64,000 nucleotides of DNA from a virus. This document shows positions 2,660 through 27,772 of this stretch, piece by piece. The notes under the pieces were generated by a model, which had not been told where the DNA came from, searched no databases, and saw nothing but the letters and a program-made list of their open reading frames with translations. The stretch's first letter is position 1. Every line of letters begins with the position of its first letter. The stretch is from positions 1 to 64,000 of the IMG/VR virus record IMGVR_UViG_3300032242_002636; one strand, written 5' to 3'. Both the position numbers and the translations under genes were made by a program.

Positions 2660-3199
2660 ATGAATTTTAAAGATTATTATAATAGAGAAAAACCTACTAT
2701 CTATGTTGATATGGATGGAGTTCTCTGTGATTTTAAGAATCCTATTACAAAAGCATTAGGAAAAATTTCCTATGATGAAGTAACCCAAGAAGATGTTAAT
2801 GAATACTTTAAGACAAATGATGTCAAAGATTTTTTTGCAAATTTACCAAAATATCCATATTCTGACTTTTTAATTAGATTTATCATCAATAAAGTAGGAA
2901 AATATAATATCTGTTCTCGTCCAATGGAAGAATATCCCAAGCCTACTATAGAAGGCAAAAACATATGGATTGATAGGGAACTGAGAGAAAAACCAGAACA
3001 GAGAATCTTTACCTTTAATAAAGAAGATTATGCAATTTCTGAATATGCTATGGGAAGTTCAAAGCCTAATATCCTAATTGATGATTGGTATAAAAATATA
3101 GATGCTTGGAAAAAGGCAGGTGGTATTGCTATTCAATATGATGCTGATGAGGATAGTATGGAAGATCTTATAAAAAAATTATATAAGTATATGGGATGA
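2660..3199 (+). CDS. 5'(3')-deoxyribonucleotidase (NT5C, HAD family)
   Basis: IYVDMDGVL motif I, ILIDD motif IV. Confidence 0.85.
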   Translation: MNFKDYYNREKPTIYVDMDGVLCDFKNPITKALGKISYDEVTQEDVNEYFKTNDVKDFFANLPKYPYSDFLIRFIINKVGKYNICSRPMEEYPKPTIEGKNIWIDRELREKPEQRIFTFNKEDYAISEYAMGSSKPNILIDDWYKNIDAWKKAGGIAIQYDADEDSMEDLIKKLYKYMG

Positions 3200-3396
3200 T
3201 ACACGAATTTAACCATCCTATACCAGTAGTAACTCCATTAGGTGATGCTTATGTGATTTATGTAACTCATAGTGGAATGTTTGAAAATGATGTGTTCACT
3301 GTTGCTCTTTGTGAAGATGGTCAGATAAGACATTTTGCTAGTGATCAGATCAAAATGTATATAAATGCAACCTTTGGTATAGGAAAAGGTAAATAA
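3196..3396 (+). CDS. hypothetical protein
   Basis: 66-aa ORF with ATGA overlap to the upstream gene. Confidence 0.65.
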   Translation: MIHEFNHPIPVVTPLGDAYVIYVTHSGMFENDVFTVALCEDGQIRHFASDQIKMYINATFGIGKGK

Positions 3397-3400
3397 TAAT

Positions 3401-3709
3401 ATGAATAAAAAAGATTTAACCTCATTAATGGAAGCATATGATACTTTGGCTACACCAAATGAACAAAATGCTACCTCTACAGAACTCTCAACAGTTGCCG
3501 ATGTAACAACACAGACAAGTTCAGAAGGCGATACACAAGAAGAAAGAAAGAGTATGATTGATTCCAACCTTAAGACTATTGGGCAACATCTTTCAGAAAT
3601 CGAACAAGCTATAGGACAAGGACATGAAGTAGAGCCTTGGATGGAAGAAAAGATTGCAGTTGCAACAGATTCAATAGTTAGAATCGCTAATGCAATTAGA
3701 AACCGATAA
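3401..3709 (+). CDS. small late protein with KD-type leader, putative internal head protein
   Basis: MNKKDLTSLMEAY leader; TAAATA at 3390; helical C-terminal domain (PWMEEKIAVA). Confidence 0.7.
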   Translation: MNKKDLTSLMEAYDTLATPNEQNATSTELSTVADVTTQTSSEGDTQEERKSMIDSNLKTIGQHLSEIEQAIGQGHEVEPWMEEKIAVATDSIVRIANAIRNR

Positions 3710-3845
3710 AGATCCAGAAACTAAAGCTAAACAACTTCAGGAAGTCCTAAAGGCAGTAGGTGATAAACTCAGAAGTGATCCCATTCGTCTAGAGGCATAT
3801 AGAAAATTTAAAGCTAATTTTCTAAAGAGAAGATATATTGGTTAA
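3690..3845 (+). CDS. small hypothetical protein (51 aa, not in track)
   Basis: MQLETDKDPETKAKQLQEV...RRYIG* fills the gap. Confidence 0.4.
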   Translation: MQLETDKDPETKAKQLQEVLKAVGDKLRSDPIRLEAYRKFKANFLKRRYIG

Positions 3846-4358
3846 TTTTTTAATTCTGTATCTCTTATTATAAGATGATCTTTTGGTGTTTTTAGTATTT
3901 CTACCACAAAAAGTTTCGGTCTGAGAGTGACAATTAGGACAAAGCAATCTCAAATTTGATGGGAAATTATTATCAGAATTACCATCTATATGATCTACAT
4001 GTAAAGAAATTTCTTTATCCTGCCAATTCGATAGTTTACAAATTTCACACTTATATCCTTTTTTTTCACTTAAGTACTTTCTTAAAGTTTCTGAATGACA
4101 ACTTTCTCCGTTTTCTATTCTTTTTGTTGTATCGGTTTCGAATCTATATCTGCCACAACATTTATTACTGCAAAATTTTCCGTTTGATGATTTAACATGG
4201 TAAACAAACTCTTTTTTACATTGTAAACAAATAGATTCTTTACCTGTTTTTTTCCTTTTAGGATATTTCGAACCATTTAATTTAGCTGCACAAGATCTAT
4301 TGCAGAATTTTTTAGCATATTTGTTTGTTATTTCTTTATTACATGTTGCACATTTCAT
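3822..4358 (-). CDS. HNH endonuclease with N-terminal Zn-ribbon repeats (putative homing endonuclease)
   Basis: CxxC..FCxxxC repeats; CEIC...HVDHIDG...N...NLRLLCPNCH. Confidence 0.88.
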   Translation of the reverse strand: MKCATCNKEITNKYAKKFCNRSCAAKLNGSKYPKRKKTGKESICLQCKKEFVYHVKSSNGKFCSNKCCGRYRFETDTTKRIENGESCHSETLRKYLSEKKGYKCEICKLSNWQDKEISLHVDHIDGNSDNNFPSNLRLLCPNCHSQTETFCGRNTKNTKRSSYNKRYRIKKLTNISSL

Positions 4359-4409
4359 ATTAATACTTACAATAGTCTGTGTACATATTCAAATAGTCTG
4401 GGTTTTGAT

Positions 4410-4437
4410 TTGACATTTGTATTATATATGTTAATAT
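4410..4437 (+). promoter_or_regulatory. sigma70-type promoter for tRNA pair
   Basis: TTGACA-16 nt-TAATAT. Confidence 0.65.
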
Positions 4438-4453
4438 ATAAATATATAAACAT

Positions 4454-4527
4454 GGGAGGTTAGTTTATCGGTAAAACGCTTGGTTTACATCCATGAGTGA
4501 GTGGTTCGACTCCACTACTTCCTACCA
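4454..4527 (+). tRNA. tRNA-Val(UAC)
   Basis: cloverleaf, anticodon loop TTTACAT, GGTTCGACTCC, 3' CCA. Confidence 0.88.
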
Positions 4528-4535
4528 CTTTAATA

Positions 4536-4612
4536 GGAACTGTAGCTCAATTGGATAGAGCATTTCGCTACGGACGAAAAGGTTAGAGGTTCGAGTCCTC
4601 TCAGTTCCGCCA
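4536..4612 (+). tRNA. tRNA-Arg(ACG)
   Basis: GGAACTG/CAGTTCC acceptor, TTTCG-CTACGGA-CGAAA, 3' CCA. Confidence 0.95.
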
Positions 4613-4618
4613 AAATAT

Positions 4619-4647
4619 TTGACAAGTATAAAAATAAGTGATATAAT
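4619..4647 (+). promoter_or_regulatory. consensus sigma70 promoter, leaderless
   Basis: TTGACA-17-TATAAT; ATG 6 nt after -10. Confidence 0.85.
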
Positions 4648-4653
4648 AGGAAA

Positions 4654-5172
4654 ATGTCTTCGTATATTTTAACTCCAGAAATAATTCAAATATGTGAAGA
4701 GTTTGCTGAAAATTGTTTTCCTACAAATAGGATACAGTACACAAAAAGAAATCAAACCAATCCTGAAAAAATAAAAAAAGATATTAGGATTGGAAAAATG
4801 GGAGAATTTGCTGTTTATAATTTAATGTTAGAAAAGAAGGTTAAGAACATCACTAAACCAGATTTAAAGATTTATTATGAACATAATAAGAGCTTTGATT
4901 CTGATTTAAAATGTGATAACTATAATCTTCATGTAAAATCACAATGTCTAGAATCTGCATCAAGATTTGGAATAAGTTGGACATTTCAAAAAAAAGATCC
5001 TATTGTTATCAGACCATCAATTTATGATTATTTTATAGGTACAATAGTTGATGAAAAGAATAAAAAAATAGAAATCAAGCTTTCAAAACCAGTTAAAAAC
5101 TTAATTTTTGGTGAACCTGTTTTAGATATTCTTAAGAAAACAAAAATTTGTGTATATCTAAAAGATAATTGA
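4654..5172 (+). CDS. hypothetical protein, possible PD-(D/E)XK nuclease fold
   Basis: GKMGEFAV...D..SD....LHVKS pattern. Confidence 0.55.
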   Translation: MSSYILTPEIIQICEEFAENCFPTNRIQYTKRNQTNPEKIKKDIRIGKMGEFAVYNLMLEKKVKNITKPDLKIYYEHNKSFDSDLKCDNYNLHVKSQCLESASRFGISWTFQKKDPIVIRPSIYDYFIGTIVDEKNKKIEIKLSKPVKNLIFGEPVLDILKKTKICVYLKDN

Positions 5173-5196
5173 CATTTATAAAATTTCATCTATAAT
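5169..5196 (+). promoter_or_regulatory. sigma70 promoter, leaderless
   Basis: TTGACA-16-TATAAT; ATG at 5203. Confidence 0.8.
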
Positions 5197-5202
5197 ATAA
5201 GA

Positions 5203-5475
5203 ATGCCAACTATTAGAATTCCAGTACCTCTTAGAAAGATCACAAACGATCTAGAAGTTATATCAATAGAAGGATCTACTATTGGTGAAGTCTTAATGAT
5301 GCTTTGTTCAAGATATCCAGAATTATATGATAGGTTATTTGATACAGATTCAAATGTTCGTAGATTCATTAATATATTTCTTAATGATGAGGACATTAAG
5401 TTTCTTAAAGATCTTGATACAGAAGTTAAAGAAACTGATGAAATTTCTATAGTTCCAGCAATAGCAGGAGGCTAA
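5203..5475 (+). CDS. MoaD/ThiS-family ubiquitin-like protein
   Basis: beta-grasp pattern, FINIFLNDED, C-terminal IVPAIAGG di-glycine. Confidence 0.92.
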   Translation: MPTIRIPVPLRKITNDLEVISIEGSTIGEVLMMLCSRYPELYDRLFDTDSNVRRFINIFLNDEDIKFLKDLDTEVKETDEISIVPAIAGG

Positions 5476-5478
5476 TTT

Positions 5479-5829
5479 ATGAAGAAAGTATTAAAACCAG
5501 CAGAAAGAGAAGAAGCGGCTTACTATTCCGATTTCACAGGAAAGCCTCTTAGTCAATGTAGACCAGAAGTTGATCTTAAAATGTCTTTTGGTTATGAATC
5601 AAAATATGATGGAGCACGTTTTACTCTTCATTTATCAGATGAAGATGCTGATCAGATTTTAAAGTTTCTATCTACCAAAATTTCTAATGATTGTAGGAAA
5701 GAGATACAAAAGAATCTAGAGCAGCTTGATGTTCAATATGATGATGCTATGGATTCTCGTGCGTGGGGAGAGTGTGATTTACTCCACAACAACAGAGAAG
5801 TCTATAAGAAACTTCTTAACCTTGAGTAA
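5479..5829 (+). CDS. hypothetical protein
   Basis: 116-aa ORF co-oriented after the MoaD-like gene. Confidence 0.65.
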   Translation: MKKVLKPAEREEAAYYSDFTGKPLSQCRPEVDLKMSFGYESKYDGARFTLHLSDEDADQILKFLSTKISNDCRKEIQKNLEQLDVQYDDAMDSRAWGECDLLHNNREVYKKLLNLE

Positions 5830-5836
5830 GTAGTTC

Positions 5837-6751
5837 GTGCAGTTTAACGACTATTATAAAGCCAGTAACATCAATGAATGTACTTCTGTTGGTATCTCAA
5901 TAGAAGGTAAGGTTATTTTAACCAAGAACAGAGATCGTACATATTATCCTAGAATAAAAATTGTTAGAGAGTTAATAAATGGACTTGAAGTAGCCTATAT
6001 GTATGATGAGGATACTGACTATTCAGAGGGAATGAATGAAGCTCATATCGGTATTTTAAATACTACTCTTCAAGGTAAAAAAGATGAAAATGAAGGTAGT
6101 AGTAAAAACAAGGGAAAACGTCTTAGAAGATTAAGTGGTGATGGTCATAAAATTAGAACTGCTTTAGGATATACTGATCCTGAAAAGGTTGTAAAATCAT
6201 TAGATCTATTTGATAGAGGTCTTGGTGGTCATACTACTGTTGCATATGAGAATGGATTTATTTCAATTGAAAAGTTAAAATTTGGAAAACCAGTTATCAA
6301 AAAATATGATAAAAATGGTGTTATCGTAAGAGCCAATCATGGTATTGCATATCCAGATCAGGGATATCAATTTGGCAAAGATAGAGAGTCAACACTTTCC
6401 AGAGTATTTTGGGCTACCAAAGAAGCAAGACTTGCTATCAGTCCAGAAGATTTATTAAACAAAATGAGAGAACACCATCAAGGAGTTCATGGTTATCTTG
6501 AACCATATAGAACCAATTATAAAGTATGGACATCATCACAGATACTTTTAAATGTAACTGATTTACAAATGATATTTGTAGTTGATGAAAATGCTGATTT
6601 TATTGGAATTGAAGATAGAATTCCAAAAGGACATACACCTAAAATTGATATACAAATTCAGAAGTTAGAAACAAAATTTGTCACCAGAGATGCAAACTAT
6701 AAAGGTGACGAAAGAGAAAATACAGAAGATACTACAAATTTTAGCTTGTAA
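5837..6751 (+). CDS. Ntn-hydrolase (Cys nucleophile; peptidase C45/C69, choloylglycine hydrolase-like) with 14-aa propeptide
   Basis: E|CTSVG...ILTKNRD, EGMNE, RANH, S..R motifs; GTG start after TAAGTA. Confidence 0.75.
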   Translation: MQFNDYYKASNINECTSVGISIEGKVILTKNRDRTYYPRIKIVRELINGLEVAYMYDEDTDYSEGMNEAHIGILNTTLQGKKDENEGSSKNKGKRLRRLSGDGHKIRTALGYTDPEKVVKSLDLFDRGLGGHTTVAYENGFISIEKLKFGKPVIKKYDKNGVIVRANHGIAYPDQGYQFGKDRESTLSRVFWATKEARLAISPEDLLNKMREHHQGVHGYLEPYRTNYKVWTSSQILLNVTDLQMIFVVDENADFIGIEDRIPKGHTPKIDIQIQKLETKFVTRDANYKGDERENTEDTTNFSL

Positions 6752-6776
6752 TTCTTAAATAAATATCATATCATAT

Positions 6777-7376
6777 ATGGATATGAATCAACATTTACGT
6801 CAAGAAACGGTTTTGGTACTCAATAGATGCTGGCAAGCAATTCATGTAAAAAGTCCAGCAGAAGCGTTGTCGATGATGTATGATGATTCTGCAACAGGAT
6901 TGAATATCATAGGAAATGATTGTATGGTTCCTCTTCGTTGGACTGATTGGGTGAATCTTCCTTATGATGAAAATGACTTATATATTAAGACTGTTAATGG
7001 AAGTATTAAGATTCCAAAAGTAATAGTTCTTTCCAAGTTTGATAAGGTTCCTAGAAAGCGTCCTAAATTTACTACAAGAAATGTTTGGATTCGTGATAAC
7101 GGTACTTGTCAATATACAGGCAAAAAGCTTAATCATAGTGAGGGAAATATTGACCATGTACTTCCAAAGAGCCGTGGTGGTGTTACAAGCTGGACTAATT
7201 GCGTATTAGCGCATAAAGAAGTAAATGCTAAAAAAGCAGATAAGACTCCCGAAGAATCAGGTCTTAAACTTCTTCGTAAGCCTTCAGCACCCAAGGATAT
7301 GCCTGTTACTTTTTACATTAGGAATAAACATAATATCAGAGAATGGGAAATCTTCCTTAAAGATTTTACAAATTAA
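6777..7376 (+). CDS. HNH endonuclease (McrA-like)
   Basis: VLVLN..WQAI, RDNGTCQYTG, IDHVLPKSRGG..SWTNCV...N..K. Confidence 0.9.
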   Translation: MDMNQHLRQETVLVLNRCWQAIHVKSPAEALSMMYDDSATGLNIIGNDCMVPLRWTDWVNLPYDENDLYIKTVNGSIKIPKVIVLSKFDKVPRKRPKFTTRNVWIRDNGTCQYTGKKLNHSEGNIDHVLPKSRGGVTSWTNCVLAHKEVNAKKADKTPEESGLKLLRKPSAPKDMPVTFYIRNKHNIREWEIFLKDFTN

Positions 7377-7379
7377 TAT

Positions 7380-7808
7380 ATGGAAAAAAAACCTAATAGA
7401 TTATCATGGGAAGAATATGCATTAAAGATTGCTGAAGTAACGGCTCTTCGTTCTGAAGATCCTTATATGAAGGTAGGATCTTGTGTTCTTAATTCTGACA
7501 ATAGAATCATTGGTGTAGGATATAATGGTCTAGCTGCTGGTAAACATGTTACAGATGAATTCTGGAGCGATAGAGACCAACGTAGGAAGTATATGATACA
7601 TGCTGAAGCCAATGCTCTTTCTCTTATAGATCGTGGACAAGGTGTTCTACTTGCCTGTACTCTTCTCCCTTGTAGTTCATGTGCTACTTTAATAGCTGGA
7701 CACGCAATCAAAAAGGTAGTTTACAGAGAGACCTATAAGAGAGACGAATCAGCCTTAGAAATTTTTGATTTTTATGGTATCAAGTGTGAACAACACTTGT
7801 GGAGTTAA
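7380..7808 (+). CDS. dCMP deaminase
   Basis: HAEANA and PCSSC Zn-binding motifs, GYNG. Confidence 0.92.
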   Translation: MEKKPNRLSWEEYALKIAEVTALRSEDPYMKVGSCVLNSDNRIIGVGYNGLAAGKHVTDEFWSDRDQRRKYMIHAEANALSLIDRGQGVLLACTLLPCSSCATLIAGHAIKKVVYRETYKRDESALEIFDFYGIKCEQHLWS

Positions 7809-13602: not shown

Positions 13603-13845
13603 TCAAGAAGTTTTTTCTACTCTTTTTAGTTTTGTGTAGTATTTAGGATCTTCAAACAGATGATCCATAGCAATTGTTTTTGCTGTTTCTTCGTCTTGAG
13701 TATGCTCTCTTTCTACCTCAAGACCCGCATTTAATTCGCTCTGAAGCTCTTCTAAACTTACATTATGCTTAGTAGCAAGGCTCTCAATAGTCTGACCTTT
13801 TGCCAGACCATTTAAAACATTTTCTACTAAAGTATTGAACTTCAT
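13603..13845 (-). CDS. DUF5661-like small protein
   Basis: GLEVEREHT....A..IAMDHL.EDPKYYTKL. Confidence 0.75.
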   Translation of the reverse strand: MKFNTLVENVLNGLAKGQTIESLATKHNVSLEELQSELNAGLEVEREHTQDEETAKTIAMDHLFEDPKYYTKLKRVEKTS

Positions 13846-25459: not shown

Positions 25460-25529
25460 TCTACCTATAATTATATGTGTCATATCAATTTTCTCAATAA
25501 AAAATGAGTAAATGGATATTGGTCAAAGG

Positions 25530-25535
25530 TAAATA
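25530..25535 (+). promoter_or_regulatory. phage late promoter TAA(A/G)TA (representative copy)
   Basis: same hexamer lies 4-13 nt upstream of the start codon of more than 20 genes, including sheath, tube and terminase. Confidence 0.75.
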
Positions 25536-27746: not shown

Positions 27747-27772
27747 TACTATAGGATAAATATTTAAAACAT

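Follow-up and report, generated by a model that had tools for sequence, protein, structure and literature searches.

A virus-restricted Ntn hydrolase whose N-terminal leader ends in a candidate prohead protease site

The window, a stretch of 64,000 nt covering positions 1 to 64,000 of the IMG/VR record IMGVR_UViG_3300032242_002636, belongs to a large T4-like phage and contains an open reading frame (ORF) whose product is predicted to be the proenzyme of a virus-restricted, C45/PVA-like Ntn amidohydrolase. A short leader would mask the nucleophile of the enzyme, Cys15. The last three residues of this leader, Ile12-Asn13-Glu14, and the aliphatic-x-Glu tripeptide found family-wide at the same place coincide with the experimentally known I/L-x-E rule of the T4 prohead protease gp21. 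We propose that the phage's own prohead protease of the S77 family cuts after Glu14 late in infection and that this cut would generate the active N-terminal Cys15. Taking together the versions in which the enzyme is packaged into the head and in which it is not, we estimate the probability of such activation in trans at about 0.55.

Fold and family of the predicted protein

The ORF runs on the + strand from a GTG at 5837 to the stop codon at 6751, encodes 304 aa and was judged to be real. Since close homologues preserve the leader at the amino-acid level (with GTG starts in some and ATG starts in others), an in-frame TAG stands upstream of the GTG (5831–5833) and no in-frame ATG precedes Cys15, we consider the leader to be translated. 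The preliminary description of this DNA had placed the presumptive nucleophile directly behind Ile-Asn-Glu; the codons and the structural superposition described below both agree with this placement. The features of the gene and of its surroundings are listed in Table 1.

Table 1. Positions in the window of the predicted enzyme, its parts and the elements discussed in the text
Feature	Position	Strand	Remarks
Leader of the target's type on an unrelated HAD-type 5′-nucleotidase	2660–2680	+	First 7 codons
Sigma-70-type promoter	4619–4647	+	Consensus −35 (4619–4624), 17-nt spacer, consensus −10 (4642–4647); heads the cluster 4654–7808
TAAGTA element	5827–5832	+	4 nt before the GTG; shares bases with the upstream ORF's stop codon
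N-terminal leader, 14 residues (pro-peptide, candidate address tag)	5837–5878	+	GTG start; supported by homologues
Tripeptide Ile12-Asn13-Glu14 (P3–P1)	5870–5878	+	Ile12 5870–5872, Asn13 5873–5875, Glu14 5876–5878; fits I/L-x-E of T4-type prohead proteases
Cys15, predicted N-terminal nucleophile	5879–5881	+	Structural alignment and invariance
Mature Ntn-hydrolase domain (predicted), residues 15–304	5879–6748	+	C-terminal ~25 residues of low confidence
Lys30-Asn31-Arg32-Asp33-Arg34 motif	5924–5938	+	Columns invariant in the 56-sequence alignment

The target protein had no match in Pfam at E-values up to 0.1 and no family in PHROGs, and sequence and profile searches of the PDB returned nothing meaningful. 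A search of a large protein collection yielded 110 homologues of the target, many of which are tagged PF03417, including many of those at 45–70% identity. The only named model to match the target was NF040521 (NCBIfam "C45 family autoproteolytic"), at 21 bits against a cut-off of 85 (E 1.6e-4). This match starts at profile position 87, which corresponds to residue 12 of the protein. Before Cys15 there are just 14 residues, and the alpha subunit of about 90–100 residues that canonical C45 proenzymes possess is missing. The target is most suitably classed as a divergent sister to peptidase C45/AAT (PF03417, NF040521).

A structure predicted with AF2 on a 56-sequence alignment (mean pLDDT 84, pTM 0.82) was compared with known folds. 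The best Foldseek matches of the model were isopenicillin N acyltransferase AAT (2x1c) and 3gvz (E 3.5e-8), along with BSH/PVA, and structural alignment gave Z 21.2 for 3gvz (rmsd 2.6 over 209 residues) and Z 19.6 for NAAA. Residue 15 of the model coincides in space with the residue that opens the mature chain in NAAA (126), acid ceramidase (143), PVA (1), BSH (2) and PLBD (249), at Z-scores of 16–21. The central strand begins at residue 16, right after Cys15, and residues 1–12 of the leader are modeled with a pLDDT below 50. The model, the Foldseek search and the structural alignment all give an Ntn hydrolase, confirming at the level of predicted structure the four-layer alpha-beta-beta-alpha fold with Cys15 as the N-terminal nucleophile. 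The proposal of an Ntn-hydrolase zymogen, made in the preliminary description, is thus supported by the fold, by the position of the nucleophile and by the intact set of catalytic motifs. Judged by its spacing, the Arg/Asp pair within residues 30–34 would be the catalytic Arg/Asp known from PVA/BSH-type enzymes. By analogy of fold, we infer that the substrate is probably a non-peptide or acyl amide. A lipobox, and hence a lipoprotein, was also considered for the residues before Cys15 and rejected, since the leader has no hydrophobic signal segment and a lipobox does not tolerate Glu at −1.

A profile search returned 611 relatives among 50%-identity representatives, and more than 500 viral loci of the family were found. 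A scan of the genomes of 185,579 cellular species gave three loci, all of them on short MAG contigs; the family, a virus-restricted relative of C45, is effectively viral. Many relatives are domains within proteins of 500–2,800 aa (2,792 aa in the longest), where they occupy N-terminal, internal or C-terminal positions. Among the fusion partners are a Zeta-toxin-like kinase, phosphatidylserine decarboxylase, nucleotidyltransferase and poly(A)-polymerase-like domains, superoxide dismutase, LigT, topoisomerase IB and RNA ligase. Inter-domain aliphatic-x-Glu sites in these polyvalent relatives were considered as evidence of processing and discarded: the best case, a site before a ligase-like domain, is found also with Met in place of Glu and so looks intrinsic to that domain. 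The ligase-like domain (Lys-x-Asp-Gly motif; L013, L014, L020, L082 and other loci) always starts with Gly-Gly-Ala-Tyr-Gly-His-Met and is preceded by Leu/Ile-x-Glu or Leu-Leu-Leu-Met regardless of the upstream part.

Residues preceding the nucleophile in relatives

In the 56-sequence alignment, neither Glu14 nor Cys15 varies. By searching proteins twice and scanning viral contigs twice we obtained 299 non-redundant domains; all but two of them fall into three classes according to the residues before the Cys. In class E (n = 212) P1 is Glu throughout and P3 is aliphatic in 208 of 211 sequences (99%), with Leu in 101, Ile in 86, Val in 15, Met in 6, Phe in 2 and Thr in 1; P2 is variable, although Asn accounts for 48%. 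In class A (n = 68) P1 is Ala (56), Ser (6) or Gly (6) and P3 is always basic (Lys in 40, Arg in 28). Proteins of class M (n = 17) begin directly with Met-Cys. Conservation of aliphatic-x-Glu before the Cys, a check for which the preliminary description had asked in the form [LIV]xE, extends throughout the enzyme's own clade and breaks down in the wider family, where Ala, Ser, Gly or Met takes the place of Glu.

Apart from the tripeptide, the leaders of class E are unalignable. Some have as few as 3–4 residues, whereas at internal junctions more than 600 residues can precede the Cys; in the shortest leaders P3 is the initiator Met or the residue next to it. Leaders of 3–4 residues cannot be targeting signals. 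In a FastTree phylogeny the E and A classes are mostly, though not perfectly, separate. Met-Cys arose at least five times, including in S77 phages, and some close relatives of the target start in this way. As the motif classes largely track phylogeny, inheritance may account for part of the correlation between motif and protease. The Met-Cys variants of S77 phages, in turn, indicate that the masked state is dispensable.

Leaders shared with unrelated proteins

The leader of the target had been described as similar to that of the 5′-nucleotidase, and the similarity proved not to be due to chance. Over the first seven residues after Met, the target and the HAD-type 5′-nucleotidase reach a BLOSUM62 score of 26, the highest among the 7,381 N-terminal pairs that the genes of the genome can form, while the 99.99th percentile of internal control windows is 17. 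In the phage clade of the nucleotidase family, an extension of 12–27 residues of the target's leader type stands before the catalytic Asp motif. Distant homologues start only four to six residues ahead of this motif, from which it follows that the leader type is an add-on in the nucleotidase. The leaders of the nucleotidases have no consistent cut motif at their end, and this counts against the proposed mechanism. The HAD-type 5′(3′)-nucleotidase encoded in the window (2660–3199) has 13 extra residues at its N-terminus, which belong to the target's leader type.

In orthologues that are 64–70% identical to the target, other types of leader occur, all of which end in the same tripeptide. One of these types, here called the KD leader, is present also on five other proteins of the window. 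Four of these five have an aliphatic-x-Glu within 12 residues past the leader, compared with an expectation of about 0.15 per protein. A profile made from leaders of this kind in the orthologues gave matches at the very N-termini of two small proteins of the window (E ~6e-4 among 122 proteins). Among the looser resemblances that had been claimed for leaders of other proteins, that of the protein at 13845 is matched by a leader profile, but the genome-wide enrichment of aliphatic-Asn-Glu near N-termini is weak (7 vs. 3.3 expected; for aliphatic-x-Glu, 54 vs. 42) and carries no weight in our argument. Taken at the level of sequence, these comparisons indicate that the leaders are portable N-terminal tags, attached by phages of this group to proteins that are otherwise unrelated.

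The S77 protease and the position of the gene in carrier genomes

The sites cleaved by T4 gp21 read I/L-x-E, the cut falling behind the Glu, and related proteases of giant phages also cut behind Glu (PMC12991175, PMC5694885). The record to which the window belongs is a 107-kb fragment with an estimated completeness of 51%, and neither an S77 gene nor a head module was found in this fragment. Of the 33 carrier contigs of classes E and M that reach 60 kb, 21 have an S77 gene; the seven with an estimated completeness of 94–100% are all among these 21. The only cultured carriers are the Chryseobacterium phages MA9V-1 and MA9V-2, and MA9V-1, whose enzyme gene is MA9V1_182, combines the junction Leu-Asn-Glu-Cys with an S77 match. 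This match (29 bits; record 126606–126944, L002) lies inside a 1,349-aa open frame, suggesting that the protease-bearing protein of MA9V-1 is fused or very large. No virion proteome of a carrier phage was found among literature titles and abstracts, and a search of full texts gave no paper linking Ntn hydrolases to prohead proteases or polyvalent proteins.

In a complete 266-kb relative, the enzyme gene is located between the S77 protease gene and the genes for an acidic scaffold and the major capsid protein. At this locus (L040) the protease occupies 3839–4435 and the enzyme 5998–6822, and two adjacent paralogues of 127 and 177 aa (5067–5986) stand between them. An 18-residue N-terminal stretch with Ile-Met-Glu at its end is common to the two proteins, which then diverge; the pair resembles an array of internal proteins. 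In another lineage the enzyme gene adjoins the genes for the large terminase and the portal. In other carriers 40–100 kb separate the enzyme gene from the protease, and in most genomes, including that of the window, it is far from the head module.

In five contigs carrying class A enzymes, including a 222-kb record, none of S77, S78, ClpP or the NCLDV capsid family was found. In the 222-kb genome, which is of high GC content and has terminal repeats (L171–L182), the enzyme (L095, ~2990–3860) and four other ORFs share one N-terminal leader. This leader is of the Ala-Arg-Arg-Val-Ala type and lies 4–13 residues after the Met. Leaders of this type precede the Cys in many relatives, at N-terminal as well as internal junctions.

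Expression signals and gene neighborhood in the window

The enzyme gene belongs to a tight co-directional cluster (4654–7808) that also contains genes for a ThiS-like protein, an HNH endonuclease and a dCMP deaminase. The sigma-70-type promoter at the head of this cluster argues for early transcription. It follows a tRNA-Val (4454–4527) and a tRNA-Arg gene (4536–4612) and suggests that the host uses sigma-70-type promoters. The ThiS/MoaD-like protein (window 5203–5475, 90 aa) ends in Gly-Gly and matches Pfam at E 9e-16. None of the cluster neighbors (ThiS-like, HNH, dCMP deaminase) is syntenic with the enzyme in relatives. A functional link of the enzyme to the ThiS-like gene or to the 116-aa and 172-aa ORFs was rejected, none of these being syntenic across 167 related loci.

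A late promoter had been claimed for the gene in the preliminary description, and the evidence for it is divided. TAAGTA, a hexamer that also precedes tail genes, stands immediately upstream of the GTG; however, the classical T4 late promoter TATAAATA is absent upstream of the target even when one mismatch is allowed, and the whole cluster lies behind the sigma-70 promoter. Across the 107-kb genome TAAGTA is the hexamer most enriched within 30 nt upstream of starts (27-fold; 15 genes vs. 0.55 expected), and TAAATA is enriched 11-fold. TAAGTA and TAAATA both stand before sheath, tube and baseplate genes. Both hexamers often lie 3–12 nt from the start (e.g., window 25527–25535 and 27754–27762), so that as −10 elements they would leave almost no 5′ leader. 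TAAGTA may be a late-promoter-like motif or one of the initiation region.

Discussion

In Ntn hydrolases the nucleophile, a Cys, Ser or Thr, is the residue that opens the mature chain, and catalysis needs its free amino group. Release of this group in trans by the S77 protease would account for the persistence, on exchangeable leaders, of a tripeptide that matches the S77 rule exactly. It would also account for the layout of leader plus site on unrelated proteins that are unable to cleave themselves, and for the other, equally strict tripeptide of a second viral lineage. Against it stands the fact that all the characterized structural relatives of the enzyme (AAT, PVA, NAAA and acid ceramidase) process themselves.

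These relatives lead to the alternative that deserves the most attention, namely autoproteolysis. Cys15 would here attack the Glu14-Cys15 bond, aliphatic-x-Glu would be a requirement in cis, and the leader may still be a tag or be used otherwise. Self-activation is known even from structural relatives with very short pro-peptides (PVA precursor 2iwm), and the single family model that matches the target is an autoproteolytic one. Maturation without a partner would also agree with the very short leaders and with the Met-Cys variants. Since the second lineage has its strict P3/P1 pair without a known matching protease, the family itself could constrain these positions. A precedent for the removal of a pro-peptide at a Glu-Cys bond is PurF of Bacillus subtilis, a Cys Ntn enzyme that presumably loses 11 residues in this way. 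Yet autoproteolysis leaves unexplained the coincidence of the tripeptide with the specificity of the carriers' protease family, as well as the persistence of the tripeptide on non-homologous, exchangeable leaders. Nor does it account for the same leaders, with the same kind of site, on proteins incapable of self-cleavage. We consider autoproteolysis a serious possibility, though on balance we doubt it.

In the simplest setting for a cut by the S77 protease, the reaction would take place inside the prohead, the enzyme would be cargo similar to the internal proteins, and it would enter the next host as an amidase already in its active form. That the enzyme is packaged and delivered as an effector is plausible because the leaders appear portable and are shared with unrelated proteins, because two lineages have the gene within the head module, and because relatives are fused into polyvalent, effector-like proteins. 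We place this packaged version of trans-activation somewhat below even odds.

The same protease could also act as a timer without any packaging. The S77 enzyme would then cut a soluble precursor in the cytoplasm as proheads mature, and the product would be a late amidase acting, for example, in envelope remodeling, lysis or signal degradation rather than a component of the virion. T4 gp21 is able to cut a cytosolic, non-packaged protein in vivo, as shown for a CD-NTase loop with a Leu-Pro-Glu site (PMC12991175). The leaders of 3–4 residues, which retain the cut motif yet cannot target, agree with a cytoplasmic cut, as does the distance of the enzyme gene from the head module in most genomes, that of the window included. 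However, the longer leaders are conserved, portable and common to other proteins, which points to a role beyond that of a cut site, and two lineages do have the gene in the head module. We therefore regard a cut without packaging as unlikely.

That no maturation occurs, the leader being retained and the protein inactive or Cys15 an internal residue in some other chemistry, would fit the lack of direct evidence for processing, but it is highly improbable given the invariance of Cys15 and of the whole set of catalytic motifs and the independent Met-Cys lineages, which expose the same Cys and so mark a free N-terminal Cys as the selected state.

Extended to both lineages, activation in trans would amount to a design rule, in which a family of Ntn amidases is armed by the carrier's own head-maturation protease behind a shared, lineage-specific tag. 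The site would be aliphatic-x-Glu in T4-like phages and Lys/Arg-x-Ala in high-GC giant phages. We put this rule forward tentatively, aware that it may well fail in this general form. If it is true, the family would provide the first Ntn hydrolase activated by a foreign protease, and the cut rule of an uncharacterized capsid protease could be read from the family. In this respect the position of the Cys would serve as an internal readout of how head proteases cut in phages that are not in culture. As the family is large, confined to viruses and often fused into polyvalent proteins, its substrate likely matters for host takeover or entry.

Comparison with known systems

Ntn hydrolases are textbook examples of self-activating enzymes. 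The enzyme of the window is like C45/AAT, PVA/BSH, NAAA and acid ceramidase in its predicted Ntn fold (Z 16–21), in the N-terminal Cys and in an Arg/Asp pair about 17–18 residues past this Cys. Unlike the characterized enzymes of this group, which have Gly, Phe, Ile or Ser at P1, it has Glu at this position and an aliphatic residue at P3. It differs from C45 also in falling below every Pfam threshold, in lacking the alpha subunit of ~90 residues and in belonging to a family restricted to viruses. Handing over activation to the protease of the viral capsid, if this is indeed what occurs, would be a new way of activating Ntn hydrolases.

Relatives of the target domain that are parts of multi-domain fusions resemble the polyvalent proteins which Iyer and colleagues are said to have described in 2017 from phages and conjugative elements. 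The window protein, in contrast, stands alone.

The closest parallel for the leader is offered by the internal proteins IPI–III and Alt of T4, from which gp21 removes the CTS. In both cases a short leader of 10–20 residues is placed on unrelated proteins and ends in I/L-x-Glu, and the E- and M-class carriers that are 94–100% complete encode S77. In some relatives, moreover, the gene lies in the head module beside paralogues that share a leader. On the other hand, the leader sequences found here are unrelated to those of T4, and several leader types coexist. In addition, the predicted cut would not only trim the protein, as in IPI–III and Alt, but also create the catalytic N-terminus and thus activate the enzyme, whose status as cargo is that of a candidate. 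If confirmed, it would be a clean case of a phage that couples the loading of cargo, or late timing, to the activation of an enzyme.

A likeness exists also to the activation of the CBASS CD-NTase, described in a preprint (PMC12991175), where an S77 protease turns an enzyme on by cutting at I/L-x-E. The CD-NTase, however, is an immune sensor of the host and is cut in a surface loop, whereas the enzyme described here belongs to the phage and the predicted cut falls at the nucleophile itself.
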